This document shows, in pieces, positions 2,727-46,081 of a DNA stretch of 64,000 bases. The DNA lies in the NCBI GenBank assembly GCA_031551405.1, contig JAVBNQ010000005.1, positions 33,743 through 97,742 of the forward strand, in the 5' to 3' direction. Origin of the DNA: a bacterium (GTDB taxonomy: Bacteria; RUG730). A program made the translations under genes and the position numbers. The notes under the pieces were generated by a model that was not told the DNA's origin, ran no database searches, and saw only the letters and a program-made list of their open reading frames with translations. Every line of letters starts with the position of its first letter. Position 1 is the first letter of the stretch.

Positions 2727-2792
2727 AATAAAAAAACCTCTAATAATTTTTATATTTTGGATACTATTATTTTTTAAAATTCAAGTCAAGTT

Positions 2793-6699: not shown

Positions 6700-10787
<4,088 letters not shown>

Positions 10788-17805: not shown

Positions 17806-18010
17806 TTTGACCTCATAAATAAAAGACTGCCACCTAACATTAAAATGCTAGAGAAAAAACCGTCTTTATAAATATTGTAAATTAACAAAAAATAAACAAG
17901 TTAGAATTTTTATAGCCGTAGCAACACAACGACAGCATCTGCGCTTACAAAACACATCTAAAATACTATAATTAAATTTTTTCAAAGGTTAAACAAAAGC
18001 AAATAAAAAA

Positions 18011-18070
18011 TTTCTTTTTCGTCAGTTTTTGGTTTGGACGAGCAAAAAAAATGGACAAAGCCGGCATCTA
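18011..18070. repeat. Intergenic repeat element, partial copy C, between the two Pmp-like genes
   Basis: cgtcagtttttggtttggacgagcaaaaaaaatggacaaagccggcatcta aligns with the 3' portion of copy B. Confidence 0.5.
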
Positions 18071-18304
18071 CAAGTTGGGAAAATAACACAGACGTCATTA
18101 GCAAAAAAACAAAAATGTGAAAATTTTGTCATTGCATGTAACACAACGCCCGGAAACCAATCGCACCTTGAGCGAAACACAAGATCTGAAACTGAGATGC
18201 GTCGCTAGTTAAGAATGACGAAAGTGTACTCGTGATGGCTATTAATAAAACTTGGAATTATATTTACTACAACTCCACAACACTTTTTTTGTCTATTATT
18301 TTTC

Positions 18305-21300
18305 CTAGAACTCCCAATTAAGTCTTACGTCAAATCCTTGTTCAGAATAATACTTTTTTGTCTCGCTTGTGTACGAAAATCCTAAACTATATTGATTTAA
18401 CATTTTTATATCGAATCCAAGCCTCAATCTTAAAACATCTCCTGATTCTGCGCCTTTTATCTTCCAAACCTCACTTCCGCCAACAAATTTCCCTTCGCCG
18501 TTCGTTTCTTTGTCTCCTACTCCAAATCCATAATTAACATCTATTACTCCAATTAACGTACTAAAAAACGCATTTTCTAACACTACTTTTTGCGAAAACT
18601 TCAAACCAATCGGCACCTCCCCTACATTCCTATCAAATTGCTTTATTTTTCTCGTCACACTCGCATCTCCAGTTTCGCTAAATCCATCGAAATATATTTT
18701 CCCAACGTTTAATCCAATATGCGGCAAAATCTGTCCACACCAGCTCTCTGACTCAAATTCCTTAGCCAAAAATCCTATTTCTCCTCTCACTCCTACATAA
18801 TTCAAATCGTATTTTCCTTTAGCTCCGGACTGCAAAAATTCGTAATATGTACTTTCTTCATTTGTCGTCACACTATAATCAAATTCGGCAATCCCGTAAT
18901 AAAATTCTCCATCGTAAGAACCATATAATGCAGCTCCAAATCCTGCTAATTTACTACTCATTGTTTTATTATTTACAAACAATTCTCCCTCGTCATACTG
19001 TAATGCTCCTCCAACCAAATATTCACCAATAAACCTGTCGTATCCAAGAGTAAATCCTTTTGGTTCATACTTGTATCCTACTTTTTCCGCGTGGTCTTTC
19101 TGTTCAAGCTTTCGACTAGAGTACATTCCCCAAATCTTTTGCGTATATCCATCGTTATATCCCAATGTCGCCATTGTCCCTATCGATGCGTATTCTGTAA
19201 ACGGATCTGTTGGATCTCCATTATGAAAACTATCCAATCTATTATCTATCCTATTTCTCAATGTTGTAACATGTTCCAACAAAGTCTCGCTCGTACTCAT
19301 CAACTCGCTTCCCTCTAGTTCAAATCCTAGTTTGTCCAACTCCAGCGCCAAATCTTGAAAAATTCTTCCAGTCATATAAATGTCCGCAAACATTTTTTTT
19401 CTTTATTCGATAAATTCGGATTATTACGATAATAATCGATCGTCTCCTTAAATCCAAACTCGTCTTTTAGCGCTTTCAAATTTATTACCAAATCATAATT
19501 TTTTCCTGTTTCTGCTGTCAGGCTTTCTTCAAAATATACATCAACCAAATTGTTGAAATATGAAAAACTACTTTTTTCTCCTGGCACATACGACGTATAG
19601 TCATCTGTCTCTATTGCATCTTTCAATACTGTTTTGCCTGGCTTAGCTGATACCACATCTCTTACATTTATTTCCAACTTAGCTCCGTCTTCTACTTTAA
19701 CGGTTTTGGCCGATAGTTTCGTAATTTCTTTTGAAGTCAAATATGGCAAATACGAACTATCACTTGAAAAATATAAAAGAGTGTTCGCCTTTTTTGCAAA
19801 CCTCAAATTTGCTCCGCTGCTCAAATCAAGAGCTCCTTCTTTTATTTTAAATGTTCCATTCGTCGCTATATTATTTTCACCTCCTAGCTTCATCACTCCT
19901 TTACCGGTCTTCTCAATATTTATCCAGCCATCTCCGGCTCCACTCGAAAATGGATCTCTGATTTCCAACATCTTTCCTTCGCTTATTTCAAAATTTACAT
20001 TGATTTTTGTATTAACTTGTCTCGCTTCCATAAACATAAAACTTGACTCGCCTTTTGCCGTATTTCCTGCCCAAATCGTTTCGCCACTCGCTTTGTCGTC
20101 TATCATAAATCTCAAACTCGCATTTCCCTCAACGTAAATAGCTCCTCCTTCTCCTTCAATCGCTTTGTTGTTCGTGAACACTGCGTTCCTTATTTCCAAA
20201 TTATTTTCACTCGTCACTGACATCGTCGTCATATATATCGCTCCTCCTAATCTTCCCTCATTTGAATCAAAAATCACCTTCTCTCCCCTAAACGTCGCTG
20301 TAGAGTTCCTCATATACATCGCTCCTCCTACTGCGCTCATGCTCAGGTTTCCTTCAAATAATGCCGATCCTTCAAAAAGAAACGAGGAATTCACAGCAAG
20401 TATTGCTCCACCATCCAATCCAGATTCGTTTTTTCTAAAAATAACATTATCCTTAAACTCTACTCCTCCATACCTGCCTAAACCAATTCCACTTGAGTAA
20501 ATAGCTCCCCCAAATGAATTAACACTTTTATTCTCTTGAAATACTGTTTCTCCGGCGAAAATCGCAATAGAATTATTCAAATAAAATGCTCCGCCACCGA
20601 CTTCTGCTTTATTAAATTCAAAAATAGACGTACCCTGAAATGTTGCAGTTGAATCAATAAGATACAGAGCTCCCCCGGAAATATTCGCTTCATTATTTTT
20701 AAAATAGGCATAGTTTTCAATAGTTAATTTTGAAGCATCCGAGTAAATCGCTCCGCCATTTGTATTTGCCGTATTGCCAGAAAATAAAACACCGTTTTTT
20801 AAATTAAGAATAGATCTATCTACGTTTAATGCTCCTCCGTATGCCATTAAGCTGTTATTAGTCTCGAATTTAGTTGCTCCTTCAAAGCTTAAAACCGTAA
20901 GTTCCAAATGTATAGCGCCTCCAGCAAGTACCGCCGCATTACTCGAAAATGTTGAGTCACTTTTAAAAGTCGCTGTTGACTTAGATAAATACATTGCTCC
21001 ACCGGCAGCGAGGGTGCTTTTATTGGTGTCAAATTTTGACATGCCTTCGAACGTTAAATCTGATCCAAAAGAAAATAACGCTCCTCCATTTGACGTTGCA
21101 GTGTTGCTACTGAAAAAAGAATCTGCTCTAAAAATTCCTATTGAACTTGACAACATCATTGCTGCCCCTGAAGCTCCATTGCTATTGTTATCAAATAATG
21201 CTATCCCTCCAAAATCTAGTTTTGAAGAACTGGCATACACAGCTCCGCCATTATTGGAGGAAGATGAATTTTTTGAGAAAGATGTTAAATTTTGAAAACT

Positions 21301-23874
21301 AACTGTTGACCCCGTCAAATACATTGCTCCACCGCTTGTTTGGGCTGAGTTATTTTCAAAACTAGCCTCAGCTTGAAAAGTTGCTGTAGAATTCAATAAA
21401 TATATTGCTCCGCCAGAAACTTTGGCTTCATTAGCTTCAAAGCTCGCATCTCCTCCAAACTCTAATTTTGCGCTTTCCAAAAACAACGCATCACCAGACG
21501 AAACTAATGACTTGTTATTTTTAAATTCTGCGCTAGTAAAACTCAAACTAGATCGATTTATCGGAGCCACATAAATAGCACCCCCTGAACTAGTACTTTT
21601 ATTGTTATCAAACAAAGCATGCCCTGTAAAAGAAATATTGGAAGCATTATATAAGTGAAATACGCCACCGGATTTATCTGTTTCATTATCTCTGAAAGTC
21701 GCGGTTGAAAAAACAATCTCAGAATTATCAAGATATCCAACTCCTCCTCCAAACGTTTGTAAACTGGTAGCTTTATTTCTTTCAAACAAAGCTTCGTCTA
21801 AAAATGTCAATTTTGAGTTTCCAATTATATAAATAACACCGCCAGGCGCTTTTGCGGCGTTATCAGCAAACAGAGCAGTTGAGTAAAATGTTACGCTAGA
21901 TTTGTCTAGATATAGAGCTCCTCCTCCAAACTTTGTACCAGGATTACTTTGACTCGTACTCTTATTGCCAATAAACTCAGCACCTCCTGTAAATGTAGCG
22001 GTAGATTGATTTAAATACATCGCTCCGCCCGATTGAGTTGTTTCGTTATTTTTAAAGGTCACAGTAGAAAAAGAAATATATGTTGAAGTACTGTATATGG
22101 CGCCACCGTTGCCTGTTCCAGTCACTTTATTCCCTTCAAACCAAGATTCTGAGGAAAATGTAGCGGTAGATTGAAGCAAATACATCGCTCCACCATTTAT
22201 CTTTGCTTCGTTATTTTTAAACGTCACCGCCTAAAAAGAAAGATACGATGAATTACCAGCATAAATTGCTCCACCACTTGACACTATGCCCGTACTTTTA
22301 TTCTCTTCAAACCAAACTTGTCCGGAAAATGTAGCGGTAGATTTGTCCATATAAATTACTCCGCCTGACTGATTAGATGAATTGTTGCTAAATGTTGCAG
22401 TTGAAAAAGAAAGGTATGACGAATTAGCTGCATATATTGCGCCGCCGTTCGAAGTTGCCGTATTGCTCGAAAAAAATACATTTTCTTTCAATATAGCCGT
22501 CGACTTATCTAAATATATCGCGCCGCCGTTTAGTTTAGATTCATTTTTTTAAAAAATACATCTACAAAAGAAAGATACGATGAATTTCCTGCGTATATCG
22601 CTCCTCCGCCCCCTACTGTAGCAAGAGACTTATTTCCTTCAAATAAAGAGTCTCCGGAAAATGTAGCGGTAGATTTGTCCATATAAATTGCTCCGCCACT
22701 TGTTTTAGATTCATTGTTTTTAAGAGAAACATCATCTAAAAAATAGAGTTTTGATTCAGTTTTTGCATTAATCGCTCCACCGGCCGAACCTGTACTTTTA
22801 TTCCCTTCAAATAAAACGTATCTATTGAATGTTGCAGTTGCATTAACGACAACTAGCGCTCCTCCGATCTGATAAGCTTCGTTATTTTTGAATGTTACAG
22901 TAGAAAAAGCAATCGTTCCATTTGCTAAATATACTGCGCCGCCGCCACCCATAATAGTTGTATTTGTACTTTATATTACCTTCGAATAGCGCTTCTCCTG
23001 TAATATTAGTGTTGGATCCAGATAAATACATTGCTCCACCAGTGTTAACTGATACATTATTTTTAAAAATCACATCTATAAAATCTACTTTTAGTCCACT
23101 GCCGGCATAAATCGCTCCGCCGCCGCTTGTTAAACTTTTATTCCCTTCAAATAAAGTAAAATCTGTAAAATTTAACGATGAGTTTGCAATTGAAATACTA
23201 ACAGCTCCTCCTGAGAGCAATGCGGAATTATTTCTAAATGTTACGCTTGAAAATAAAATACTCGATTTTTGAGTTGATGACGGGTTTGTGCCGCCTCCGG
23301 AATATATTGCTCCTCCATTTCCTCCGGATCCGGCTTTATTCCCTTCAAATAAACTTGCCCCTGAAAACGTAACGCTAGAACCCTCGATATAAAACACACC
23401 CCCATATCGCATACCGTTATTATATAAAAACTCCGAATTATTAAAATTGACACTGGACTGATTAATATAAAAAACCACTCCATCCGGATCATTACTGTCT
23501 ACGCTTGCCGAAGAAAAAATTATACTATCTATAGTGACTACGCTATTATTATTAACTTTAAAAATTCTTCCCTTCACTGTCGAGCTACTGACGGTCATCT
23601 TAGTAGTTGAGGATTTCAAAATAATGTCTTCAAGCCCAGAAATTGGAAAACCACCAGAAGCAATGATGCTTTTGTCATCTTGATACAAAATAACACTGTC
23701 TCCTGTCAATAACACACCCGCATTCAAGAATTCTTGCAAAGTGTCATAATAAATTCCACCTACCGGCTGTCCGCTTCCAATATGATACTCTGTTGCAAAA
23801 ACTTTCGCATTAAACGTAAAAAAGAAAAGCAAATTACAGAGAATTAGCGAAATACATTTTTTTAAATTTTTCAT
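18305..23874 (-). pseudogene. Pmp-repeat autotransporter paralog, disrupted by two homopolymer frameshifts, one other frameshift and one in-frame TAG
   Basis: ORF-track fragments 22882..23874 (with signal peptide), 22530..22952, 22231..22491, 19372..22227 and 18305..19393 form one colinear Pmp-like gene; the last fragment is a near-copy of the beta-barrel domain of 10819..17805. Confidence 0.7.
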
Positions 23875-23900: not shown

Positions 23901-25430
23901 TTAATGTTTAAAATGCCTTTCGCCAGTAAAAATCATACTAATTTTGTTTTGATCGCAACACTCGACCACTTCATTATCTCGAACAGACCCTCCAGGTTGA
24001 ATCACGCTCGAAATACCGTATTTCGAAATCATTTCAATCGAATCCTTGAACGGGAAAAAAGCGTCCGATGCCAAAACCGCTCCTTTTAAATCGAAGCCAA
24101 ATTTTTGCGCTTTTGAAATCGCAATTTCTACGGAATCAACTCTACTCGTTTGTCCGGCACCGATACCAATTATCGTCTTATTTTTCGCTAAAACAATTGC
24201 ATTTGATTTCACATTTTTACATACAAGCCAAGCAAACTCCAAATCGCTAATCTCAGTTTCCGTCGGGTTTTTCTTCGTGATAATATTTTTTTCAACTTTC
24301 ATTATTTTATCTTTTTCTTGAGCCAGAAATCCGGAAAAAACCATTTTATATTCGACCTTATTATTTGAATTTACGTTAATTTTCAAAACACGTAAATTTT
24401 TTTTTGCTTTCAAAACTTCGAGAGCTTCAACGTCGTATCCTGGCGCAATTATGCATTCCGTGAACAAATTCGTAATTTCGAGCGCAGCCTCTTTGTCCAA
24501 AACAACATTTGTCGCGATAATCCCTCCAAACGCACTTACAGGATCCGTAGACAAAGCCTTCAAAAACGCATTTTTCAAATTATCACTCGAGCCAACTCCG
24601 CAAGGATTATTATGCTTTACAATGACTACAACTTTTTCCTTAAAATCAGACGCAATATTCCACGCGGCTTCAAGATCGATCAGATTATTATACGACAATT
24701 CTTTCCCGGACAATTGCTCCCACGAAAAAACGTCATTATTCGCGTCTTTGTAATACGCTGCTTTTTGATGCGGATTTTCTCCATATCTAAGCTCGAATTC
24801 TTTGACTAACGTTTTATTGATTAGAGATGGAAAATCTCCATTCTCAACTCTTTTTTCTGCTAAATAATTTTGAATAAAACTATCGTAAACGCTCGTAGTA
24901 AAAAAAACCTTACTTGCGAGCTCGCACCTGGTTTTTTGTGAAATCTCACTATTTTTTTTGAGTTCGGTAATCACTTTTTGATAATCATTTGGATCACAAA
25001 TTACTGCTACGTCTTTATAATTTTTTGCACTCGATCTGAGCATACCAGGTCCGCCAATGTCGATGTTTTCTATCATTTCTTCATGCGATGCACCCTTTTT
25101 TAACATTTCGGCAAAAGGATACAAATTCACGACTACAAGGTCAATAAACTCAATATTATGTTCGTTTACCTGTGAAATATGAGAGTCTTCATCGCGCTTT
25201 GCAAGAAGCGCGCCGTGAACTTTTGGATGCAGCGTTTTGACTCTTCCATCTAAAATTTCTGGGAATCCCGTGAACTCAGAAATATCTTTTACAACGAAAC
25301 CAAGTCCTGAAATATATTTTTTTGTTCCGCCGGTAGAAATTATTTCTACGCCAAAGTCGACTAATTCTCTTACTAAAAAATCCAGATTGGTTTTATCGGA
25401 AACACTTATAAGCGCTCTTTTTATCTGCAT
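23901..25430 (-). CDS. purH: Bifunctional AICAR transformylase / IMP cyclohydrolase
   Basis: 509 aa; N-terminal MGS-like domain (RALISVSDKTNLDFLVREL...GVEIISTGGT) followed by AICARFT domain. Confidence 0.9.
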   Translation of the reverse strand: MQIKRALISVSDKTNLDFLVRELVDFGVEIISTGGTKKYISGLGFVVKDISEFTGFPEILDGRVKTLHPKVHGALLAKRDEDSHISQVNEHNIEFIDLVVVNLYPFAEMLKKGASHEEMIENIDIGGPGMLRSSAKNYKDVAVICDPNDYQKVITELKKNSEISQKTRCELASKVFFTTSVYDSFIQNYLAEKRVENGDFPSLINKTLVKEFELRYGENPHQKAAYYKDANNDVFSWEQLSGKELSYNNLIDLEAAWNIASDFKEKVVVIVKHNNPCGVGSSDNLKNAFLKALSTDPVSAFGGIIATNVVLDKEAALEITNLFTECIIAPGYDVEALEVLKAKKNLRVLKINVNSNNKVEYKMVFSGFLAQEKDKIMKVEKNIITKKNPTETEISDLEFAWLVCKNVKSNAIVLAKNKTIIGIGAGQTSRVDSVEIAISKAQKFGFDLKGAVLASDAFFPFKDSIEMISKYGISSVIQPGGSVRDNEVVECCDQNKISMIFTGERHFKH

Positions 25431-25764
25431 AAAACTTCCTTTTTTTCGATTTTTTTTTTAAAATTATATGAAGAATTAATGTAGCAAAATATCCATCGAG
25501 AAGCAATAAAATATTTCAAATATATATATATATAAATTTTGTGAGGGTCAATTGATTTTTTCATGATACCAAATAATAAAACAAAAAAACGCCACTCAAA
25601 GATTCAATTTTAAAAAAAATATTAGAAAAAATCAGTTCATACACGAGGAGAAAAATTTGGCGTAACCGTAAAAGGAAAAAACAATCAAAAAAAATTTGAA
25701 ACTTTTTGCATAAAAAAGTCTCTAACTAGGCGAAAGAGCTCTCAAAAAGAGGGAGGATCCAAAA

Positions 25765-26517
25765 ATGAAAATTGTAAGCTTAAATCCTACAACAATGAAT
25801 CTAATAGTCGAATATATGAGCTTGCCCAACTCTGATGTTTATAAAAAAATTTTATTTGAAAAAATAAAAAATACTGAACTTGGCCTCGAAGCTCTAGAAA
25901 GTCAACAAAATGTTCTTCAAACTTTTAAGACTTTAAGCTCTCCTGAAATACCTAGTTCAGCTTCCATTACAATAACAGAAAAACTCCAAAAAATAAAAAG
26001 CAAGAAGCAAATTAGTTCTGCCAGTGATATTGCTTATAAATTTTTAGCTACACTGAAAACTGCTCTACAAATAAGTCTCGTAACAATTGGAGCGTTTTTG
26101 ATTGGAGTTGGAACAATCGCTTATTTTGTAAACCCTGAAAAAAACATTCAAAATAACAATATCTCATCACCTGCTTTTACTACTAACATTAATTCAACCT
26201 TATCAAAAACTTCTAACACATCTCTAAATTTTCAAGGGAACATCACTTTGGACTCAATCAAAAGTTTTGATTTGGAAAAAAATGAAAATCCACAAAATCT
26301 AAAAGAAAACTCTTTATATGCATTTCAAGGTGAATTAAAAAAATATAAAGCTATAACAAAAGATTCTGAATCTAAAGATGTTTTGGAAGTCTTGCAAAAC
26401 GCTGAGAAAGAGCTCGATAAAAGTTTCATAAATACAAATAAAATCGATAATTATATATATTACGCAGTCTTATCTCAACATGACGTAAAAATTTTATCTG
26501 ACGAAGAGTTAGACTGA
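25765..26517 (+). CDS. Hypothetical single-pass membrane protein (250 aa), first gene of the giant-ORF operon
   Basis: GGGAGG RBS upstream; one hydrophobic helix (LQISLVTIGAFLIGVGTIAYFV); stop lies 13 nt before the start of the 14.2-kb ORF. Confidence 0.55.
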   Translation: MKIVSLNPTTMNLIVEYMSLPNSDVYKKILFEKIKNTELGLEALESQQNVLQTFKTLSSPEIPSSASITITEKLQKIKSKKQISSASDIAYKFLATLKTALQISLVTIGAFLIGVGTIAYFVNPEKNIQNNNISSPAFTTNINSTLSKTSNTSLNFQGNITLDSIKSFDLEKNENPQNLKENSLYAFQGELKKYKAITKDSESKDVLEVLQNAEKELDKSFINTNKIDNYIYYAVLSQHDVKILSDEELD

Positions 26518-26530
26518 TAGAGGGGGAAAA

Positions 26531-29500
26531 ATGTTTATAAAAAATTTAAAAATTACAAAATGTTTGGCGTCATTCTTGGTTGTAACGACTTTTACATGTT
26601 TTATCTTGAATGACTACACCTATGCCCAAACTCCTGCAAAAATATTGCCTTCTATCAGCGAATTACGTAAAGCAAGGGGATATGACAAAACTTTTACAAA
26701 CATCGGTTTTAGAGAAGAAATTGCGATTAATCAAAGCGCTGATTTATACGCTAAAAAAATGAACACAAATTATGCTAATCAGCAAACAAAAATTGAAAAC
26801 AATTTAAAAGCAAAAAAAGAATCTGCTTGGGCAACTGCCGAGAAAAAAACAAATGAAATAAAACAAACTGCCACATTAAATAGAGAACAATTAAATGTAA
26901 ACTATGCAAAAAATCTTGCAGATTACAAATCAACATATTCTGTTCAAAAAGCTAAACTTGCAAGCGATTTTGACATAAAAGTTGCACAAGTAGACAAAAA
27001 TTTGGCGAGGCTTAGAGACGTATCCGCAATAGCTGCAAAAAAAATTGATACTCAGTCCGGTATTAACAAAATAGGCAGCGTAGTAGCCTCTGGTATTATG
27101 AAACCTGTACAAGGGATTATGAGCGGTCTTACATCTGTAGTCGGTTTCTTTTCAGGAAAAGATAATAACCCTCTTACAAAAATAAATGACAAAATACAAA
27201 ACATTGATAAAGATTTGGCTGATTTAAAAAATTCTAAAAACGACAATATGGCTTCTATTCAAAAAAATACTGCTGATCAAATAAAAAATTTAGAGAAAAA
27301 AAAGAAAGATCTGCTTGAAGCTAAAAGTGCATCACTTACAAATATGGACAAAAGAAATGACGAAACTTTGGCAAATATGGAGCTTTCATTCAAAAATGAA
27401 ATAGAAGCCGTAAATAATCGTGAAAATTCTTACATAGCGAGTTTGGTGAATAGTACAACTGATGAACTTGCAAAACTAGACGGTGAAATAAAATCCAGAC
27501 TTGAAGATTTGTACACACTTACAAACTCAGAGCTGGAAAATTATTTATTTGGAGACGATGGCTTATTTAAGAAAGCTTATGAATACGATGACAAAACAGC
27601 CTTACGAAATTTAAAGTCTGATCAAGATAATTCCAATCGTGAAATTCAAACTGACGAAAAAAGCGGTGGTTATATTGGAAATTTAGCTAACTATATGGGA
27701 GTGGAAGAGCAAAAAAGGGCATTTGCAAGTAATCAATACTTAGAAAAAGCAGAAAAACTGCTTTTGTCAGGAGCTAGTGATGGTACGAGAAGAGCCGGTG
27801 AATTTGCTGCAGCAGCCGGTGTAGTTAGCAAAGATGCCCAAGTTTTGATGCCACGCGATTTTTCTGATGCAAGTTTGGCTCGAAGCGGCGCTATAGAGCT
27901 TAATATGGATCAAGGCGAAGCCGCAGGCACCGTCCGAGATAACAAAGTAGCAAATATAGACGCATCATTCTTAAAATCCCAGCAAGAACTTGCCGACTAT
28001 TCTGACAGCATAGTCAAATATTCCGACGAAGTTACCGGTTTTCTAGAGGATACAATCAACAATTTTGCTGATAATTCGAAAAATGAGATGAATGATTTTA
28101 CCAACAAAACGGTCAAAAAGAATGATGAAATCAATCAAAAAGAAATACAAGCGCTTTTGGCATTTGTAAAAGAACTGCAACAATATATGGATATGGTCTG
28201 GCCGGAGTCACAATCTGCAGGCTATGAGCGAGCTACTGAAGCATTAAAAGAAGCCGCTGAATTATACTTGAACGCGTCAATTGATACCCTTGCTATTATA
28301 CTTGCTGTAGTCTTAGGAATTGTCGGTGGATTAGTTGCGACTATTATAGGTGCAATATTTCTTATAACTACAGGAATTCCTATGATATTTTCCGGTATTT
28401 TAACTCCCTGCGGAATTGTACAGGTAGTGGCCGCTGTAGCTAGCTTAATAATCGGTATTACCGGAGTAGCTCTTGGTATTTGGGGAATTATATCAGCCAT
28501 AAGTGAACGTGAACAATTAAAAACTGCGCTCGAAATAGCAAGTAATAATGTCAAGGTTTTAAACGATTTGTTGCCGGATCCATCAAAAAAAGACTGGCCT
28601 GAGAACACACCTAGTGAGTACAAAGTTTTCATGGATGCAGAAAAAAATTATAATTCAGCTATGGGCCAATTTAAAGTAATGTTTTTCAGACGTTTCGGCA
28701 TAGAAGGCCTAAAAAAAGTCAGAAACAAAATAAACCAAATAAACAGGTTATTAGGAAAAAAAGGCATCTCTGGACTGACTCATGACGAATTATTAAAATT
28801 ACAAGAACTACTCTTTTTCTTCAAACCTGCTTCTAACGATAAACTCCTAAAAAGATCGATGGAAGGACTGAAAAATACTTTTAAATCATATCAAGAGGCT
28901 TTAGAAAACTTCAAAAAATCCACAAAGACTGTAACATACACATTAAAAGAGCTCAAAGATGGAAGCATTGTAGAAACTACTTACACAAAAACTATTTGGG
29001 AGGCTTATCAAGACAAACAATTTTGGGGAGTTGTCGCCAGCGAATTAGATATGGCTCTAAACAATGCATACGTATTTGATATCGACGCAAATGGAAATGT
29101 AATAAAAGTAGATAGATCTGATGGATCAACTTACACTGAAGAATATAAGGATCCAGAAACCGGAGAATGGAAAACAGTTACTAAGAAGGGTTGGAGTGGC
29201 TTTGCAAATAAAGCATCTCAATCTGGAGATCGTTTTTTTTCTGCTATAAATAATGGCTTCACTAAGTTTATAGATGCAACAGATGCATTCTTCTCTGGAG
29301 TAATATCTGGTGTAATATACGGGGTTACTTTTGGTCACGTCAAGGTAGATAAATTTCCTACTTGGGTCAAGGGGATAACGACATTTATTCCAAATTTCTT
29401 CAAAGCTATAGTAGATATGACTTTTATGGGATATAACCTCACCTTGCATCTTGCAAAAGGGTTATCTCAGAATGGTGTTTTGAAAGGTTTACAAGATTTT

Positions 29501-32500
29501 GCTCTCGGAATGGCCTCTTTCCCTCTTGGCATTATTGAAAATGCGATTGGTATGAAACAGGGAACATTCTTAGATCTATTCAAAGGAAAAACTCACAGTG
29601 CAAAAGAAATTTGGGGCGAAGGAGAATACTGGAATCCCGGAGCAGCTGCAGGAACTTTAGGTTTCACTATTGTTATGATGATGGGGAGCCCTTCCGGAGC
29701 TTCTTCTATAAAAGCTTTTGTTAGTAATATTAAATCAGCACTTTCGTCAATATGGAACGCTATTAAGTATGTTGCAGTGAATGGAATATGGGCCGGATTA
29801 AAAGCTTCTTTCAAAGTTGTCGGATCTGCTCTAGGAAAAATAATAAATTGGACGAAATCCCAATTCAATTTCAAAACCGTACTAGGGAATGGTTTTAAAG
29901 CCGGAGTTAGTGCAGTTTTACATAACGTTTTATCAGGTGTTAAAATTGGATTAGGGGGTTTAGGAATCGCTGCTGTAGCTGTCTTAGGCGCAGCAGGGAG
30001 TATAGCAGGTAGCATAGTATTTGGCTTAGGAAAGAGTTTACTTACAGCGACTAAAGCTCTTGCCACTACTGCCTCTAAATATCTTAAAAAATTCTATAAA
30101 GAATCTTCTATAAAAAGTCTATTTAAATGGGCTTCTAAACAAGTTACTCCTAGAAAAAGTGCAGGAGCATTGCTTGCAGCCATATTATTAACCCCTGTTT
30201 TAATCGTATCTCACGTATTAGGTATTACACAAGCCATAAAACAGCTTCATACAGGTTTTGTAGGTTTAAGAAAAGAATATAAAGCAATGCAAAAGGTATA
30301 CAATTCTACCGGTTCTTATGTACAAACACGAAATGGAATGCCTGTAAACTTAAGGACTCAATTCATTCAAAATACTATCTCTTATGGACTGCAAGTTCCT
30401 CAAGTTTTAATTAACACTGTTATGTCTGTAGCGTTAGCTCCCCTTCTTATCACTAGCCCCCTTCTTTTTATAGGAGTTAAAATAGGTCACGTTTTCTGGT
30501 CGGAAGTTATCTTAGGGCAGAGAAAATTACGGGCGATGCAAAAAGAGCAGCAAAAAGAGCAATCTCGTGGAGCCATCAACTCTCAAAAAACCCAAATTGA
30601 ATCCGAAACCAATGCTCAAGCAGTGCAAGCTTCAGCAAGAAATCTTCGTGATCACGCGAAAGCTTTCGGTATAGAAGTTTTCGACAAAACAGGAAAAAGC
30701 TTAGGAGTAGTTAGCTATAAAGTCTTCATGGAAAAAATGATTAGTGGAGAGATATCCAGCTTTGCAGTAAATCAAGGAGGCTCTAAAAACGCAATATCGC
30801 TTGGTATCGGAGCACGCGAAGCCTTGACTAGAGATTATTTGGCATCACGAGATAATGCCAGTTTAACAAGACTACTTGCCCGTAATAACGGTAATAATAA
30901 ACTAGAGGCTTTGGTCGCGGCAGAGCGAGTTCAACGAAGCACCATAATCTTAAGAGAATATAACGCACAAAGACAAAAATTAACAGGTCAGTCAGCTATT
31001 AATTTTCTAGAACAAATGCTTAATCAAAATAAGTTACGAAGCAAGGTGGCCACTTCTGCACAAAAAGCCTTTTTAAAAATGCAAAATGCAGCTATAAAAA
31101 CAGAGCTCGCAAATCTACATGCTCAAGCACTTGCTGCAAGAATAGAATTCTTATTTAGTCAATCTAAGCTTGATCCTAAGATTGTTGAGCTACTTGATTC
31201 TAATTTAGGAATATTAGATTTCTCAAAAATAAAAGCCGGTGGTCTAACACGTAATGCTGCAGAAACACTTGTAAGACAAATGGGAGATATTTTGGGAGTA
31301 GTTTCAAAAAAATATCAAGAGAGCTGTTCAACAGGAAACAAACAAATCATAAAAGACTCAAGCTCTGTAGTCTCAGCAAGATTTAAAGAAATAGTAAACA
31401 GCGAAAAATTTCAAGAAATTTTAAAGATTGCAAGCCTAGCAGAGAGGCAACAAAAAATAATGGATTATATGAAAGAGTTGAAAGCAGTTGAAAGCGCTAC
31501 TCCTCCAACTGCTTTGGAAAGACTAGTAATTGATAGGATGACGCAAGTTCTTAGAGATAATCCTTCAATTACTCCTAAACAGCTAGCAAAAATGGAAGTC
31601 CAACTGCAAAAAGAAACTGTTTTAGCTCTAGAAACCGGAGCTCTTGTTTATAACGGGTTTACAAGTTATAACAACATTGCTGACGGTATAAAACAACTAG
31701 GCGTGCGACCTGATTTAGAATTAAATAACCAAAGAAAAGCAGTGAAAGCTACGACGGCATTAAATGAAATTGAAATTACAGCTCATCATCAGACTGTTGT
31801 TAGCCAACTTAACGAAATCATAGCAATGAAACCTGAACTCTTCAGCAAGAACCAAGGTCCCGCAGAAGGAAGAATTGAGGCACGAAGAAAGGCTAATTCA
31901 GATTTTATAGCTTCAGTACGCGAAAAATATAAAAATGACCCAATTGGCAAAATACTTGCAAAAAGACTTGAGTTTTTATTGGAAATCAACGTTTACAACA
32001 ACCAAGGAATTTCTGCAAAGGATATGAAGAATTTCACAAGTCTCCTCAAAGAAGAAGTTACTTTCGCCTTAAAATCCGGCGATATAGTTCCTGCTAATGG
32101 GCGTTTTATCTCGCAAACTCAAATGGAGGCATACCTAAAAACTTTTGCAAGCGAAGCCGAACTTATGCGGCATGCACAAGAAACCTTCAAAGTTCAAAAA
32201 CAAAAAGAGGCTTTAGATAAAAAATATGAGGGGAAACAGTTTGAAAAATATTCTAGAAGCAAAAGAAACGCAGCCCAAGATTTAGTCAAAGAATGTCTTG
32301 TTATAGGAAATATGGGAGAAAAAGAAAGACAAACTGCTATTGAAGCTCTTCAAAAACAAATATCTGATATAAAAATTGAAAGAGACACCGAAAGTCCAAG
32401 CATGAGAAAATTATTAAATCGACAAGTTGATGCATTAGAAATGTTGGTAAGCTCAATAAAAAACAACGATGTTGCGAGGATAAAAGAGGCTGTAACAGCT

Positions 32501-35500
32501 TATTTTTCAAAGGGAGGAGCGAGCAGTAGCGTGACAGCTGAAGCTTTCGTAGCAAGTATAAAATCTGTTATAACCGTTACAGAAGCATTTGCTGAGAGAG
32601 TAGATCAACTAAGTCGAATTTCGAAGGATCACGAAATTCATAAGGCTGATGGAAAATTAAGCATGCAAGACTTCCAAAAAAGAGAGGTCGGTGCAGAAAC
32701 CAAAGCAACATTAGTAATCTTAAAGGCTCAACTGGACGCATTAAAAGACACCTCAACAAGGCCAATTAGTTTAGAAACTTATAAAGAATATGCTGCTTTA
32801 AGAGAAAAAATTGAAAAAAGCGATGCTTACAAAAATGCAACCACTGAACAAAGAACAGCTGCGACCACTGCAACAACACCACATGAAATACTGGCGGCCG
32901 CACTCAATCCACTAGAGGCTGTGACATATAATAAACTTATGGAACAATTTAAAGGCTTAGACTTAAAAAGTGAGCAAAGCTTTAGGGACAGCTTTAACCA
33001 AGCTATACGAGAGAAAATTAATTTGTTTGTAGCGGAAGCTGGATCTTCGATGCCAGTCGCAACAATAGTAGATTACTTACGAGGTAATCGCTCTCGTATC
33101 CCAACAGATCTAATGGCTAGTTTAGAGCAACAAATTGTTAATAAACTTAAAGGACGCGAGGCAGTAACAGCTAACGATCTTACTAGAGATCAGGCTTTAC
33201 TTGGAACTCTGCCTCAGTCTTCAATTAGAGAAGTGTTAGCTGCTCGTCCTGACTTGCATAGGCTGATACTTCAAAAAGAAATATCTTATTTGCAAGCAAA
33301 AGAAACTGTTCCTGCTGCTGTCCAAGAAGCGAATAGGCAAGTAAACGAAACCCTAAGTCTTACTGATGCAGCTGCTCTTGTCAAACTAAAAGAAACAATC
33401 GCAACAATTAGCGATCCGACTTTAAAAAAACAAATAACCGCACTTATTAAAGGCAAAGAATTAGGAAAAATTACTTTTGCGAGATTGAGCGAGTTAATCG
33501 AACAAACAAAATCAAGTCCGGAAGCCACTCAAGCGTTAAACTTGATTGTTTCCAGACGAATGAATCAGCTACAAACGTATAAGAACGCAGCCGGAAGTGC
33601 CCAAAAATCTGCCTCTAATGCTCTTATTGCCGAATATAAAAAACTAGAAGACTACATTATGAAAGGTGTAGAAAAAGCATCCGCTGGATATTTGGAAATT
33701 TTAAATAGAGAGCATCTACCTCTAATGGAAAAAATGTATAAAATAATGGAAGCAGCCGGTATTCCAAAAGCAGAGATTTCTACTTTTGATCTATCAACTG
33801 GCAAAATAGGAGATAAAACTTTTTATCAAAAAGTCCAGGAACTTGCCAGTGCAAAAAAATTAACTTCAGCCGAATATATTCAAAGAGAATTATTCGGAGA
33901 AAACCATCAACTAACACATCTTCAAGCTGACGCACTCAGAGTCGTAGGGTTAAAACTGATAGAAGGACATAACAAAATAGGTGACGGAACCATAACAGCC
34001 AGGACAGCTGCACTCACTGACCCTAACTTCAATTTTACACAAAAACAAATCTTGATGATGGCAGCCAATGACCAAGGAATGATTGCTGCTCTTGGAATGG
34101 GAGGAGGAAAAACCAGAGTTTATCCTACTGTAATAGGCTCTATGATGCAAAAAGGAATAGGCGGAGGTATTGGTGAAATTCTGGTTTCTTCAAAACAAGA
34201 AATCGCTAATATGTTAGGCAATAAAGATTACATGGAAACCTTTTATGGTGTTAAAATGCTTGATGGAACCAAGTTGCATGCAGAAAATAAATTAGGAGAA
34301 ACACTCGCCAGCCACAAAAGAGACGGTATAAAAGTCATAGTTGTCTTTGACTTAGAGACAAGAGGACATTTGTCTCACGAGATCAGAACTAATAAAAGCC
34401 TGCAAATCCTAGACAAAATAGATATTTTGGCTATTGACGAAGCTGATGCCTTATCTCTAAAACAACAATCTTTTATTAATGCAGAAAGGCTGCCAGCAAC
34501 CGATCTGATTAAAAACCAAGTAGCGAAGATTCTAGAAACTTACGAAAAATTGAAAGGTGAAGGTGCAGAAAAATTTGATGCTAAAAAAGGCGGATTTGCT
34601 GACAAAACCTTTTTGGATGCAATGTTGGCCGAGCTAAAAACCAACGCTGAATTCCAAAAAGATCAAAGCTCTTACCTTAAAAAATCACTTTTTAGTTTAA
34701 GTGACAAAGAATGGACCGGACAAACCAGCGCAATGATAACCCAAGTTTTGAGAGGTCGTGCCGAGGTGCTTTCCGGGGAAACAAAAGGTGGATTCAAAGT
34801 AGACACTGTTGGTGGTATTCAAGTCGGAGTTCAAGATGGAAACAACTACAACTCAGTTGCCGTTCAAATTATAGATGCATTCCAAAAAAATGCACCACAA
34901 GGAGTTACTTTCTCAATCGAAAGATTTAAAACAACGACAGGAGCGAGTGTATCAGAATTTGCTGCTACGGTTTCAAAAACTACGGTTGAATCTGCCGCGC
35001 AAGAAATTCTTACCAGGGCACCCGGAGTTAGATTGCACGTTTTCGGAGGGTCAGGAACAACAGGCGGCGCTAAACGTATCAGCGAAGCTGTCACTGCTCC
35101 GGTAGCAGAAATCTCCGAAGCCTCTTTTGCTAACTATGCGTTCAATACGCAAGTACAAAAACCCGGACAGCGAACAACAGATGTGGTGGCTGCATTTGCC
35201 GGGAAAGCCTTGGAGGGTAAATGGGGACGACTTATCATTCAATCGCAAGAGAATTTAGCAGAAAACCTCTTGGCTACAATAGAAAAAGTAGCAGGCCCGG
35301 AAGCTGCAGCAGCATTTAAAAATGCGGCTAGCACTAGCGGCAAAGTTGAACGAATCTCAGATGTACAATTCGCGATAGAAAAATTAGACTCAGCCTTTGT
35401 CGATCCGGTTTTCATAAAAGGACAAGGAGGTGGATTCATAAGTCTCAACCAAGCTATTACAGACGGGTTAGTAAGATCTAATGGGAAAAAGTTTTTTGAA

Positions 35501-38500
35501 ACAGTGTCTGGCAGAGAAGTCAAAGTAAGTTTAGGTGATATTTTAGCGTCTCCAACAGCAATGAGAGAATTGAATATCCCAGAAAATCATAGAGCAACTT
35601 TACAAAAAATCATAGTAATAGATCATTACACTAATCCTGAAAGCGTGAGTGGTCTAGCAAAAAATACTTCAGCAAATGGCAATATTGTCTTTTCTACTGC
35701 AAAAGCAGGCAGAGGCATGGATTTTAGAGGAAAAATGCAATTACTAGTCACGGATGTTGATTCGCTTGCAAAAAATGATTTCCTACAAATATCCGGACGT
35801 GTTGGTCGCGGTGAGTCCAGAGATGTATTCCATAGAACAGTTCTAGTCAATCCTACTCAACTAAAATCTACTTTTACGGAACAAATTGAAATTTTGCAAC
35901 AAAAAAAAGAATTCATGCAAAGCAGTACTCTAGGGAAAGAATTTATCGAACAAGGAGGCGGCCTTAAAGCTCCTCCTGCAGATAGGCAAATTACTCAATC
36001 AGAACAAGCATTCAGGGCAGAGTGGACGGAATTACAAAGTAACTTAAAAAGTTTAAAAATATATGAGAAACAGCTTGATAAAGGATCATTTACGCAAGCG
36101 TCATCCGCAGAAATGATCCGAGCCAGCACAATAATACAAGGAGAATTTAAATCCAACGGAGCAGCTCTTTATCAAATAGGCGAAGGCGTCAGGTCAGCGA
36201 TCCTAAAAATTCCTCTTGAAAGGATGAAAGCCAAAGCTGAAGCTATGGGTAATACTCATGACGCAGCTTTGATCCAACGCATAATAGATGAAATGATCAG
36301 AACAAACAAAGGAGCTACGGCAGATGCTTTGATCTTGCAAGAGTCCGGATGGAAAAATCCAAAAGAAGTTTTTGAAAAAATGATGAAAGCAAATTACGAG
36401 GCTGCCATTCAAATTTATAAAATGTTAGATGCAGTAAGAATCACAGATCCAAAAAGCATGATGGAAAAAGTAGCTTCACCTATTACAAGAAAAGTAGCAA
36501 TAGGTGAATTCAATGTTGGGTTACAAGATCCAACATTATTAAGAGAAGTTAGAACTCGTGTTTTGGATTTAGAACAAGGGAAAATGGAAGTCCAAGCAAT
36601 AGGCAAAAGAGATTGGTATGAAACCAGAGCTAAAGCAACTGAAAAAGCTAAATCCGGACAACTGACTACTTTATCAGAAATTAATTCAATGGATAACCCT
36701 CAAATAAGTCGTCAAGTCTTGGAAACCGTAACTTATGTAGCGAAAGATTTGAATCCTCAACGGAAAACTACGGCATCAGACTCATACGCTCCAAAACAAA
36801 CCGTAAGAATAGCCAACCAGGCTCTTACCGGCGTAAAAGGGACAGAAGCCGTAAGGGTAAATACCAGTAATGCAGGACAGCTGGTATCGTCTTTGGAGCA
36901 TTACAAGACAAAAGGCGATAGAATAGGTGCCATTGTTTTGACTAATAGACAACTCATAGCATTACAGCAAGATCCGATTGCTTATAAAAGATTCCAAGCC
37001 GAAATTGTAGCTACTACAGATTGGAAACATGGAGTATTCGCAACAGGACAAGCTAAAATTTTAATAGCAGACAGTGATCAAGATATAACCAATGGAAGAG
37101 CCAAGACGCTAGAACAAGCACTTGGACAAGCACAAGCTCTTAAACCACCTATTGTAACAAATGCCACTCAAATAGTTCTAGGCAGCTCATCTCAAGATAA
37201 GAAAAAAGACAAAGATTTACAAAAACTTTTTGAAATTCAAACAAGAGATTTGCGAGCAGGTATTGACCCTAAGCTTTGGGATGATTTGGATACTAATCTA
37301 GAAATCGCTATTGATAAACAACGATTTGATGCAATGCCAGAAAAGGCGAGACAAGAATTTATAGCACAATTGGGACGAGAAGCGCAATTACGAAGTGAAC
37401 GCGCTAGGGACGCTGGTAAAGATACCGGTCAAGTAACCGCAGTTTTGAGAGAGGAGGTAGTGGATACGAGTCTTAAGGGAAATCAAATCGCAACTTCCGT
37501 GCTCAGTAAGCTCTCGACACAGCCTACTGTTAGATCCGAAGCTCTTGCGCTGTTAATAGAAGCTCAAGAATCAGAAATAGCCAGACTAGAAAAAGAAAAG
37601 GGAGCAGCATCAGACCTAGAAAGCTTAGGCCTTGAAGCTTTATTTAATGAAGAAGCGCTTGTTACTAAAAAAGATCTTGAAGCCAAAATACAAGACCTTA
37701 AAGTCGAAAGACAAAAACTACTTGCCCTAGAAACTGAGGTAAGAATATTCGAAACTATGGATAAAATAATAGACACAAAAACAAACAAACAAGAAGCTTT
37801 GGCTTTAACAAAAAAAGCTCAGACTTTACTTCCTCAATTGGCAGCACAAATGGATAGATTAAATGACGAAGCACAAGCTCTTCAGACGCAAGTTCAAGTT
37901 ATAGGCCAAGAACTTTTAGATCAAGGGAACTTGGCTGTTCTCGCTAATATTGTAAGAGGAGACCAAGCGCCTCAAATCATACAACAATATACAACCCTTA
38001 GAGACGATAAAAATGAAGCTTTAAAAGATAAATTGCTTGCAATCGCTAGAACTGCAGCCCCTACTGAACAATCTAAAGTTATGACGCATTCAACACTACT
38101 CATGACTACTGATGCTACTGTTAATGCCGGATATGCAAAAATAGAAGAACAATACAGAAAAGACGTATTCCCAGGCGTTTATCAGCCTACTGTAAATGCT
38201 GATGCTAATGCTACGACTTCACCTCAACAGCCCGTTGTAGTTCAAAATGCCAGATTAGACTTGGCTCAACCTGCGATACTCAAAGATGCAAAAGCAAAAC
38301 TTAAAAATGAAGCGGAAGGAAACAAATCTACCTCTAGCCAAGGACCATCAACTGCTGCTAAAACACAATACACTTCTCTCGTGACCATGGAAGTACGCGA
38401 CAAACTTTTAACAGAAACAGGAGTCAGTCAGCTAGAAATCGTTATAAGTACAGAAGTCCAAGACGCTGCTGAAAAAGCTCTAAGAGATGGCGTACAAAAA

Positions 38501-40800: not shown

Positions 40801-40841
40801 CGAGAGTTTAAAATTTTACTTTTAGACTCTCGTTTTTTTTT
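40801..40841 (+). terminator. Putative rho-independent terminator downstream of the giant ORF
   Basis: Inverted repeat CGAGAGT (40801..40807) / ACTCTCG (40826..40832) followed by T9 (40833..40841); the 18-nt loop is larger than ideal. Confidence 0.45.
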
Positions 40842-40926
40842 AGTCAAATTTTTTAGTCAAAACTTATGAGCTCAAACAAGCCAAACGAAAATATACATTT
40901 TTGTTTAACCGGTGGAAAAAATTTCG

Positions 40927-46073: not shown

Positions 46074-46081
46074 TTTGTCCT

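Follow-up and report, generated by a model that had tools for sequence, protein, structure and literature searches.

A family of small single-pass membrane proteins encoded in strict coupling with giant proteins, behind a conserved ECF-type promoter-like motif

The locus described here lies within a 64-kb stretch of DNA, referred to throughout as the window, and consists of a gene for a 250-residue protein (the small gene) followed on the same strand by a gene for a 4745-residue protein (the giant gene). The features of the locus, in window positions, are as follows.

23901..25430, minus strand: purH (Pfam AICARFT_IMPCHas 2e-117; NCBIfam purH equivalog)
25683..25696, plus strand: A-rich tract directly 5' of the -35 element, read from the sequence; putatively UP-element-like
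25697..25726, plus strand: ECF-sigma-type promoter motif, TGAAACTT (-35-like), 16-nt spacer, TCTAA (-10-like)
25751..25756, plus strand: GGGAGG ribosome-binding site of the small gene, 8 nt 5' of its ATG at 25765
25765..26517, plus strand: small gene (P0001), ATG start, 250 aa, TGA stop included
25765..26049, plus strand: conserved N-terminal helical domain (aa 1-95), predicted cytoplasmic, from a conserved block and an AF2 model
26059..26130, plus strand: single transmembrane helix (about aa 99-122), from hydropathy
26131..26316, plus strand: variable N/S/T-rich linker (aa 123-184), predicted disordered and periplasmic, from composition and AF2
26317..26514, plus strand: conserved C-terminal domain of ~65 aa (aa 185-250), predicted periplasmic, from alignment and AF2
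26518..26530, plus strand: 13-nt intercistronic spacer with the giant gene's ribosome-binding site AGGGGG (26521-26526)
26531..40768, plus strand: giant gene, 4745 aa, ATG at 26531
26531..30520, plus strand: conserved N-terminal module of the giant protein (aa 1-1330), from tblastn and blastp
34028..35830, plus strand: divergent SF2 (DEAD/SecA-like) P-loop ATPase region (aa ~2500-3100), from motifs and weak Pfam matches
40801..40842, plus strand: terminator-like hairpin with a 13-bp stem and a T-run after the giant gene, the putative operon end
40927-41670, convergent to the giant gene: rsmE, the next gene

The small gene is a real gene. At ~34% GC, the chance of a 250-codon stop-free stretch is roughly 6e-9 (an estimate from base composition), and no competing ORF of at least 60 aa overlaps it on either strand. 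The close pair of loci L009 and L013 gives a dN/dS of 0.31 for the small gene. GGAGG/GGTG-type sites occupy the equivalent place in homologous loci. An earlier note on this DNA had described a 250-aa ORF with a GGGAGG ribosome-binding site and one transmembrane helix, ending 13 nt before the giant gene and preceded by 334 nt divergent from purH. All of this was borne out: the ORF spans 25765-26517 and encodes one hydrophobic segment, its TGA ends at 26517 with AGGGGG between it and the ATG at 26531, and the 334-nt intergenic region (25431-25764) separates it from purH on the minus strand. The predicted fold of the 5' UTR was not significant (z = 0.13).

No match to the small protein was found in Pfam, NCBIfam, PADLOC, PHROGs or PDB sequences. 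The 250-residue protein belongs to a family of single-pass membrane proteins that is previously undescribed and has no annotation across the libraries searched. A full HMMER scan recovered seven homologues of 225-279 aa and other searches found two more, for a family of ~10 members; a word-index homology search with the small protein returned only itself, and a search with the family profile yielded just P0010 and P0011 in addition. The homologues are 23-35% identical, with conserved N- and C-terminal blocks. The N-terminal block follows the pattern INLISEYLKxP...Y.D.LY.KIS...L..L..QE.VL...P....S...I...L.KI and, in an AF2 model of low overall confidence (pLDDT 51), is predicted to form helices at residues 8-19, 25-35 and 40-56, a low-confidence break and a further helix at 64-80 (pLDDT 50-74, also low confidence). 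The C-terminal block has the consensus Y.GDIKKYK.I...LL.LAEKEL.....L.KID.YLYK.LL.QH.VEVIE, with invariant G189, Y194, I197, L210, A213, E216, H239 and V241, and is modeled as strand-helix-helix-strand (pLDDT 53-68). A 20-residue match between its GDIKKYK.ID motif and Brucella PhiA (E = 1.1 in a PDB sequence search) was taken as chance, and readings of the domains as RodZ-like, ToxR-like HTH, LysM or TonB-C were without HMM support.

Between the two blocks, a hydrophobic segment is present at the equivalent position in all family members; its Kyte-Doolittle 19-residue maximum in the small protein is 2.03. The linker that follows is rich in N (22%), S (14%) and T (9.5%), is modeled with a pLDDT of 25-39, varies from 61 to 109 aa across homologues and is poorly alignable. 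The window encodes LpxA, LpxI, OmpH and autotransporters, and the organism is therefore diderm, with a periplasm. Across the family, 28 Lys and Arg residues flank the transmembrane helix on its N side vs 17 on its C side, and no signal peptide is present; together these suggest an N-in orientation. Based on this bias, the N domain is predicted to be cytoplasmic and the C domain periplasmic. L009 and L013 share 88% of amino acids in the N domain and 90% in the C domain, but 70% across the transmembrane helix plus linker, and this stronger constraint on the two end domains is in keeping with a protein active at both membrane faces.

The synteny and coupling of the small and giant genes are strict. 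Downstream of the gene for each of the homologues P0002-P0008, P0010 and P0011, wherever the contig continues, lies a gene for a giant-protein homologue that matches from residue 1, on the same strand. The order and strand of the pair are kept in 10/10 lineages of uncultured bacteria with no exceptions, one of the loci coming from an Elusimicrobiaceae metagenome-assembled genome (MAG), so the co-occurrence in other genomes that had been named beforehand as a check holds. Two loci were reached from the other side, by a search with the giant N-terminus, and the small gene is present in both; among the loci found, no giant-gene orthologue is without it. Metagenome scans with patterns from the giant N-terminus returned no relatives. 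The flanking genes vary by locus (purH in the window; Sm_multidrug_ex, TonB-like and LolD-like genes elsewhere) while the pair persists, which indicates that the two genes move as one unit.

The junction between the two genes is short in nearly every locus, at -17, -4, -4, -1, +1, +1, +1, +5 and +13 nt, and one locus carries a 104-nt insertion. At the homologous junctions of -17 to +5 nt, a GGAGG-type site lies within the 3' end of the small gene, and this arrangement, with the near-zero spacing, suggests translational coupling. The small and giant genes are thus apparently co-translated. No terminator-like site was found in 25200-27200. The sigma-70-type promoter-like matches between the two start codons lie only on the opposite strand, and such matches were no more frequent in the scan than in shuffled sequence. 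With no terminator between the genes and comparative synteny as its mainstay, the two-gene operon proposed in the earlier note is strongly supported.

A promoter-like motif, which the earlier note did not report, is conserved before the pair. In the window, GAAACTT occupies 25698-25704, GAAACTTTT occupies 25698-25706 and TCTAA occupies 25721-25725, and the -10 region reads GTCTCTAA; the motif occurs once in the 64 kb vs 0.02 occurrences expected. In 9/9 loci with upstream DNA, GAAACTTTT-N14-CTCTA(A/T) is found at identical spacing, 51-67 nt 5' of the ATG of the small gene. The motif is constant although the proteins are only 23-35% identical. The note had called the region that bears it only AT-rich, and the ECF-type motif was missed there. 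An A-rich stretch precedes the motif in most related loci, with the exceptions of L007 (mixed A/T) and L012.

Promoters of group IV sigma factors have a -35 element with a G, an AAC core and a T-tract, a spacer of ~16-17 nt and a -10 element of the GTC/TCnAA type (PMC1540707; PMC1312014). The predicted promoter fits these ECF (group IV) sequence criteria in its -35, spacer and -10, and keeps a fixed spacing in all nine loci. The E. coli sigma-E consensus is GGAACTTTT, a preferred 16-nt spacer and TCAAA (PMC1312014; PMC1540707), and A/T-rich sequence lies upstream of the -35 element in those promoters as well (PMC1312014). The motif resembles them in GAAACTTTT vs GGAACTTTT, in the 16-nt spacer, in TCTAA vs TCAAA and in the A-rich tract upstream; the organism here is unrelated to E. 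coli. The -34 position is an A, other than in E. coli sigma-E, and among other group IV sigma factors an A at -34 correlates with a Thr in place of Ser in region 4 (PMC1540707). The alternative of a sigma-54 promoter, read from TGAAAC...TTGC, was rejected, as its elements stand 2 nt too close together and the TTGC is not shared by the loci. A metagenome scan gave 119 matches to the motif, which were taken as chance because their GC content is mixed and none adjoins a family member; no autoregulated sigma gene bearing the motif was found in that scan.

The giant protein has no Pfam or NCBIfam family at cut-off and no PADLOC or PHROGs match, and PDB sequence searches with its N-terminus, middle, ATPase region and C-terminus gave chance-level matches only. 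Its N-terminal module consists of a signal-peptide-like segment (aa 1-32, ending NDYTYA), a ~550-aa helical domain that is presumably periplasmic, and a multi-transmembrane cluster (aa ~586-1330) that is glycine-rich and includes a K/R-rich soluble loop. By hydropathy, at least seven stretches between aa 575 and 1330 are strongly hydrophobic, in addition to the signal-peptide-like segment. Conservation is highest in the hydrophobic N-terminal segment that carries NDYSYA, and only the first ~1300 residues are common to all homologues. The giant protein of L008 (4785 aa) matches only at residues 2-1278, and the rest is unrelated as far as residue 3339. The small protein is kept in L008 with both of its domains conserved, which places it with the N-terminal module. 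In these alignments, the conservation of the small protein tracks the giant N-terminal module and not the giant C-terminal region.

Further along the giant protein, the putative ATPase region carries the motifs GMGGGKT (Walker A), IDEAD, AGRGMDF and GRVGRG, as read from the sequence. Its Pfam matches are sub-threshold (DEAD, E = 0.0035; Helicase_C, E = 0.026) and it is not assigned to SecA_DEAD. Identity to the corresponding region of L012 and P0012 is 44-52%; the region was not found in the first 3339 aa of the L008 protein and has no match among PDB sequences; a word-index search with an ATPase fragment returned one fragment, P0012, and the AF2 model of the region (pLDDT 37) is unusable. Giant multi-transmembrane proteins with divergent SecA-DEAD/helicase domains have been described in Omnitrophota and other phyla, with T2SS-like loci and pilZ genes near the giant genes (West-Roberts et al., bioRxiv 10.1101/2023.11.21.568195), and giant genes are reported to be common in Elusimicrobia (PMC12057145). 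The protein described here is like those of the preprint in its very large size, its many transmembrane segments and its putative divergent DEAD/SecA-like P-loop ATPase. It differs in length (4.7-5.5 thousand residues here vs more than 30 thousand there), in the N-proximal position of its transmembrane cluster, in having no detected carbohydrate-binding, dockerin or peptidase domains, and in an ATPase that stays below Pfam thresholds and outside SecA_DEAD. In the passages of the preprint drawn on here, neither a small bitopic partner nor a promoter of the ECF type is mentioned.

Based on these observations, our current hypothesis, to which we give an even chance of being right, is that the small protein acts in the inner membrane as a dedicated, co-translated partner of the giant protein's N-terminal module (approximately the first 1300 residues). 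An ECF-type sigma factor encoded elsewhere would transcribe a ~15-kb bicistronic mRNA running from GAAACTT-N16-TCTAA to the hairpin after the giant gene, and ribosomes ending the small gene would re-initiate at the giant gene. On insertion, the ~95-residue helical domain of the small protein would stay in the cytoplasm, one helix would span the membrane, and a flexible N/S/T-rich tether would hold the ~65-residue alpha/beta domain in the periplasm. The small protein may thereby touch the giant protein at both membrane faces, at the transmembrane cluster and/or the 550-residue periplasmic helical domain, and this contact could stabilize, assemble or gate the N-terminal module. The topology, physical binding of the small to the giant protein, the role of the complex and the sigma factor that acts at the promoter are what we infer here.

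A different reading, which we consider unlikely though with a real chance of being correct, makes the small protein an anti-sigma-like transmembrane regulator without an adjacent sigma gene. Its N domain would sequester a distant ECF sigma factor and its periplasmic C domain would sense the giant protein or the envelope, such that the freed sigma factor activates the GAAACTT-N16-TCTAA promoter of its own operon. The conservation of an ECF-type promoter at fixed spacing in all loci with upstream DNA is in keeping with this, as is the modeled layout of three helices, a break, a helix at 64-80 and a transmembrane helix near residue 100, which appears to mirror class I anti-sigma domains. In that class a three-helix bundle is joined to helix 4 via a flexible linker, ~44% of domains are without the zinc motif and ~65% are membrane-bound (bioRxiv 10.1101/2020.04.09.035246). 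The family described here resembles RseA/RsiW and FecR/PupR in its predicted N-in helical domain of ~80-95 residues (three helices, a linker and a fourth), its transmembrane helix at ~100, its periplasmic C domain and its operon with an ECF-type promoter. In fecR-fecA, too, a small gene precedes a gene for a large envelope protein. The family differs from these regulators in that it lacks the Hx3Cx2C motif, has no significant sequence or structure similarity to them, and is encoded by a gene that is always coupled to the giant gene, a strict coupling to a non-sigma gene that is atypical of anti-sigma factors. Anti-sigma genes normally adjoin their sigma gene, yet no sigma-factor gene is adjacent in the loci examined: none is found among the window ORFs scanned against Pfam (64 kb) or within 5-10 kb upstream in L004, L008, L012 and L013. 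With eight members scanned, no anti-sigma Pfam family appeared at E ≤ 5, and NCBIfam gave none; the only anti-sigma-related Pfam match was Sigma_reg_N (E 0.022) in one member, over the transmembrane region. A profile search of the family against PDB returned no anti-sigma chain. The top Foldseek match is RsiW, with a target-normalized TM-score of 0.65 over 70 columns but an E of 3.7, and every structural match is non-significant and built on a low-confidence model. Alignment of the N domain by hhalign with RseA/MucA and with RsiW/RsrA/DdvA gave a probability of <1%, the same as reversed controls, in a test that is powerless, since the positive control (the RseA family vs the zinc-binding RsiW/RsrA/DdvA set, with RseA and RsiW sequences verified against PDB) reached only 2.7%.

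The small protein could instead be a transient export or insertion chaperone for the giant N-terminus and transmembrane cluster that is absent from the final complex. Translational coupling would supply it just ahead of the giant nascent chain, it is bitopic with conserved domains on both faces, and the NDYSYA segment that it might serve is conserved far beyond what is usual for signal peptides. A single-substrate chaperone is unusual, however, and the small protein has no similarity to known insertases or chaperones, among them YidC, SecDF-YajC, PpiD and Skp, with Pfam and NCBIfam empty, so we judge this role improbable; sequence data do not separate a transient chaperone from a stable partner. 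Far less probable is a role in immunity, with the small protein as an antidote to some toxic activity of the giant protein. Polymorphic toxins combine a large protein of conserved N-terminal and variable C-terminal parts with a linked small gene (PMC3482391), and the pair bears a superficial likeness to them, with one N-terminal module common to the giant homologues, C-terminal regions that differ between them (L008 vs the window) and tight linkage to the small gene. The small protein is, however, membrane-anchored and homologous across loci whose giant C-terminal regions are unrelated, with no co-variation, and Pfam, PADLOC, PHROGs and PDB searches give no toxin domain or defense-system model in the giant protein. 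Immunity genes normally follow the toxin gene, whereas the small gene precedes the giant gene at every locus. The earlier note had offered chaperone, membrane anchor or immunity partner; the anchor, chaperone or partner class stands as the best, and immunity falls on the upstream gene position, the retention of the small gene in L008 and the lack of a toxin domain. Nothing specific favors the null hypothesis that unrelated genes merely share a transcript. That 10/10 lineages keep order, strand and near-zero spacing while the surroundings change, and that the promoter-like motif lies only upstream of the pair, leaves incidental adjacency with next to no probability, and the comparative data effectively refute it.

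Taken as a dedicated partner of the giant N-terminal module, the small protein would be an obligate companion that marks the conserved core of the giant protein as its first ~1300 residues. The conserved ECF-type promoter implies regulation of the envelope-stress type and gives a means of finding the rest of the regulon and its sigma factor, and the pair forms a compact two-gene unit that can be cloned for studies of interaction and expression. For the question of how giant membrane proteins are made, assembled and controlled in Omnitrophota, other phyla and Elusimicrobia, the pair offers concrete handles. A bolder idea, and one that we hold to be rather a long shot, is a self-reporting envelope machine in which the small protein, as a strongly diverged anti-sigma factor without a neighboring sigma gene, is docked to the N-terminal membrane module of the ATPase-bearing giant protein and relays the assembly or activity state of the giant protein to a distant ECF sigma factor that drives the promoter of the pair. 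If true, this would be a new form of trans-envelope signaling, with the giant protein as both sensor input and regulated output, and would provide a genetic handle on giant proteins like those of Elusimicrobia and Omnitrophota.

The 250-aa protein encoded just upstream of the giant gene is the product of a real, conserved gene. The features of this small gene and its surroundings are as follows.

23901-25430, minus strand: purH (Pfam 2e-117, NCBIfam equivalog)
25697-25726, plus strand: promoter-like motif, TGAAACTTTTTGCATAAAAAAGTCTCTAAC, a pattern found only once in 64 kb (0.02 expected)
25751-25756, plus strand: GGGAGG ribosome-binding site of the small gene, 8 nt before its ATG
25765-26517, plus strand: small gene, ATG start, 250 aa
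26517 (end of TGA) to 26531 (start of the giant ORF), plus strand: 13-nt spacer containing AGGGGG
26531-40768, plus strand: giant gene, 4745 aa
40801-40842, plus strand: terminator-like hairpin with T-run, after the giant gene

An earlier note had described the ribosome-binding site, the single transmembrane (TM) segment, the 13-nt spacing and the divergent purH gene, and our coordinates, hydropathy analysis and purH assignment agree with that description. The divergent intergenic region between purH and the small gene spans 334 nt, and no ORF of at least 60 aa overlaps the small gene on either strand. When 1.84 billion representatives were scanned exhaustively with HMMER, seven homologues of 225-279 aa were found (E values of 1e-19 to 6e-7); one extra hit, a 1208-aa low-complexity protein, was left out. 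A profile search added two further members (P0010 and P0011), and a word-index search returned only the self-match. The family, sampled here as about ten sequences, is unannotated, and no member matched Pfam, NCBIfam, PADLOC, PHROGs or PDB sequences at a meaningful level. For the closest pair of small genes, from the related loci L009 and L013, dN/dS is 0.31, and the proteins are 88% identical over the N domain and 90% over the C domain, against 70% across the TM segment and linker.

In every related locus whose contig continues, the small-gene homologue is followed by a long same-strand ORF whose homology to the giant protein begins at residue 1, as determined by tblastn and HMM searches. In the loci with a complete record of the gene, the partner is 4785 aa (L008, GCA_042563815.1) or 5503 aa (L012, GCA_024222485.1) in length. 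A search from the giant-protein N-terminal alignment, with one genome per species, recovered two loci, L013 (the only homologous locus with an Elusimicrobiaceae label, from a MAG) and the contig of L012, and the small gene lies directly upstream in both. The genes flanking the pair vary between loci. Junction spacings are 13, -4, -4, -17, +1, +1, -1, +1, and +5 nt, and at each of these nine junctions a GGAGG-type site lies within the 3' end of the small gene. Only in L002 are the genes separated, by a 104-nt insertion (1115-1218). This insertion carries two copies of a hairpin-forming GC-rich inverted repeat, AAGACGCGGTTTATCGCGTCTT / AGACGCGATAAATCGCGTCTCT, and resembles a short REP-type or hairpin element placed in the junction.

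No terminator-like site was found between the two genes in the window. Sigma-70-type promoter matches between them fall on the opposite strand only, and across the whole region such matches are not above those in shuffled sequence. The gene next after the giant gene is convergent. The same-strand pairing in every continuing locus, the tight junctions, the lack of a terminator between the genes, and the hairpin after the giant gene bear out the earlier proposal of a two-gene operon, for which the support is as good as sequence data can provide. The proposal was to be given up if orthologues of the giant gene were never accompanied by the small gene, or if a terminator and an independent promoter lay between them. 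The small gene accompanies the giant gene in all loci, from either search direction; since the pair is conserved across loci and no terminator separates the genes, neither situation was found.

The promoter-like motif recurs as GAAACTTTT-N14-CTCTA(A/T), with the same spacing, 51-67 nt before the small-gene start in nine of nine related loci with upstream DNA, and an A-tract usually precedes it. The proteins at these loci are just 23-35% identical and the remaining intergenic DNA does not align, so the motif must, on this comparison, be under selection. All loci other than L008 carry one copy; L008 has two tandem GAAACTTTT-N-GTCTCTAA copies (6794-6820 and 6855-6881), 61 nt apart, before the small gene. 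The E. coli sigma-E promoter consists of GGAACTTTT, a preferred 16-nt spacer, and (T/C)GGTCAAAA with the core TCAAA, with A/T-rich sequence upstream as well (PMC1312014). The window motif reads GAAACTT, exactly 16 nt, and TCTAA. The group IV -35 signature is a G, an AAC core, and a T-tract, and position -34 may be G or A (PMC1540707). This arrangement of elements corresponds to a group IV (ECF) sigma promoter, and we regard the motif as a putative promoter. A sigma-54 reading was ruled out by spacing and lack of conservation. No sigma-factor gene was found among the scanned window ORFs or near the related loci L004, L008, L012, and L013. In metagenome scans, the promoter motif gave nothing beyond chance hits and a protein pattern gave no match; the collection evidently lacks the window's lineage.

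The giant protein begins with a signal-peptide-like segment (aa 1-32, window 26531-26626) that ends in NDYTYA. In the N-terminal alignment (window, L002, L004, L005, L007, L008, and L012), no stretch is more conserved than this hydrophobic segment with the NDY(S/T)YA that follows it. Sec signal peptides are not usually so conserved, and this N-terminus may serve for specific recognition or anchoring and not as a generic export signal. It is followed by a helical domain of ∼550 aa and a glycine-rich TM cluster (aa ∼586-1330) that encloses a K/R-rich soluble loop. Within this loop Pfam gives a weak match to DUF3857, below threshold (aa 794-835, window 28910-29035; E 0.0045 on a fragment). Little of the remaining ∼3400 residues can be annotated. 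SF2-type motifs (GMGGGKT, IDEAD, AGRGMDF, and GRVGRG) occur at aa ∼2500-3100, where Pfam detects DEAD (0.0035) and Helicase_C (0.026), both below threshold, and L012 and a related fragment, P0012, show 44-52% identity over this ATPase region. Structure prediction for the ATPase region was weak, like that for the small protein.

Homology of the 4785-aa L008 protein to the giant protein is limited to residues 2-1278, which makes the N-terminal membrane module the conserved core. Past ∼1290 residues the L008 protein is unrelated, to residue 3339 (L008 11598-17714 against window 30521-36500), and no Walker A or DEAD motif is present within its first 3339 residues. Because homologues have only the first ∼1290 residues in common, the family is modular with variable C-terminal regions, and the small gene travels with the N-terminal core.

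Alignments of the small-protein family (A1 and A3) reveal four parts: an N-terminal block of ∼80 aa, the TM segment (∼aa 99-122 by hydropathy), an N/S/T-rich linker, and a C-terminal block of ∼65 aa. The end blocks are conserved, with G189, Y194, I197, L210, A213, E216, H239, and V241 invariant in the C-terminal one, and the linker (61-109 aa) aligns poorly. The protein lacks a signal peptide, its only TM segment comes after an N-domain of 80-100 aa, and K+R residues beside that segment, summed over the family, number 28 on the N side versus 17 on the C side. An N-in, C-out topology can reasonably be inferred. The window encodes LpxA, LpxI, OmpH, and autotransporters; the lpxA, lpxI, and OmpH/Skp genes indicate a diderm organism with LPS, and because of this the C-domain would be periplasmic. 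With a mean pLDDT of 51 the AF2 model is poor, but its secondary structure is consistent. At this low confidence it places helices at 8-19, 25-35, and 40-56, a break, and a helix at 64-80, followed by the TM helix, a disordered linker, and a strand-helix-helix-strand unit. PhiA is a peptidoglycan-hydrolase inhibitor. The conserved motif Y.GDIKKYK.ID (aa 182-201, window ∼26308-26367) matches Brucella abortus PhiA locally over 20 residues (E = 1.1; name taken from PDB entries 7dsg and 7dpy); this match is probably due to chance and is the sole hint on the periplasmic domain.

We favour, at about an even chance, the reading that the small protein is a dedicated partner of the giant protein. It would be made just ahead of the giant protein from one mRNA, would be located in the inner membrane, and would touch the N-terminal module of the giant protein, with a role in stabilisation, assembly, or gating suggested by conserved domains on both membrane faces. 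The strict synteny, the coupling, the conservation of both soluble domains, and the independence from the variable C-terminus are consistent with such a partner. A transient insertion chaperone is distinctly improbable in our judgement; sequence data alone do not separate it from the partner model. The earlier note had also offered an immunity function, which is very improbable; it is contradicted by gene order, and the small protein does not co-vary with the variable C-terminus. The comparative data exclude coincidental adjacency, to which we give next to no weight.

The main rival, an anti-sigma-like regulator, is unlikely but stands ahead of these. Three helices, a linker, and a helix, with the TM segment near residue 100, match class I anti-sigma factors (as defined in bioRxiv 10.1101/2020.04.09.035246), the ECF-type promoter also fits them, and RsiW, PupR, and RseA are among the structural matches. 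However, these matches are not significant and derive from a weak model, the assignment has no HMM support, and, most weightily, a sigma gene is adjacent in no locus. An hhalign test of the anti-sigma reading was without power.

Directly beyond purH lies a Chlamydia-PMP-repeat/autotransporter cluster.

10819-23874, minus strand: the whole cluster
within it, minus strand: POMP_repeat gene (2328 aa, 6e-39)
within it, minus strand: Autotransporter beta-domain gene (362 aa, 4e-27)
within it, minus strand: Chlam_PMP gene (951 aa, 6e-39)
within it, minus strand: second Chlam_PMP gene (330 aa, 1e-11)

On the other side, just past rsmE and convergent to the giant gene, is an hrcA-grpE-dnaK-dnaJ heat-shock cluster (41675-47101, minus strand). 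Pfam identified hrcA, grpE, and dnaJ, and the 620-aa ORF between grpE and dnaJ is assumed to be dnaK by size and position. Past this cluster are genes for V-type ATPase subunit D, lpxA, lpxI, and OmpH/Skp.

Giant multi-TM proteins with divergent SecA-DEAD domains are described from Omnitrophota and other phyla (bioRxiv 10.1101/2023.11.21.568195), and in Elusimicrobia giant genes are reported to be common (PMC12057145). The likeness of our giant gene to this theme is loose; its protein is smaller, with an N-proximal TM cluster and an ATPase that is not assignable to SecA_DEAD. Neither a small bitopic upstream partner nor an ECF-type promoter for such giant genes is described in the parts of this literature covered here. 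Because its function is inferred and its architecture has clear analogues, the pair is not categorically new; it would represent an accessory membrane protein and a giant envelope protein under ECF-type control.
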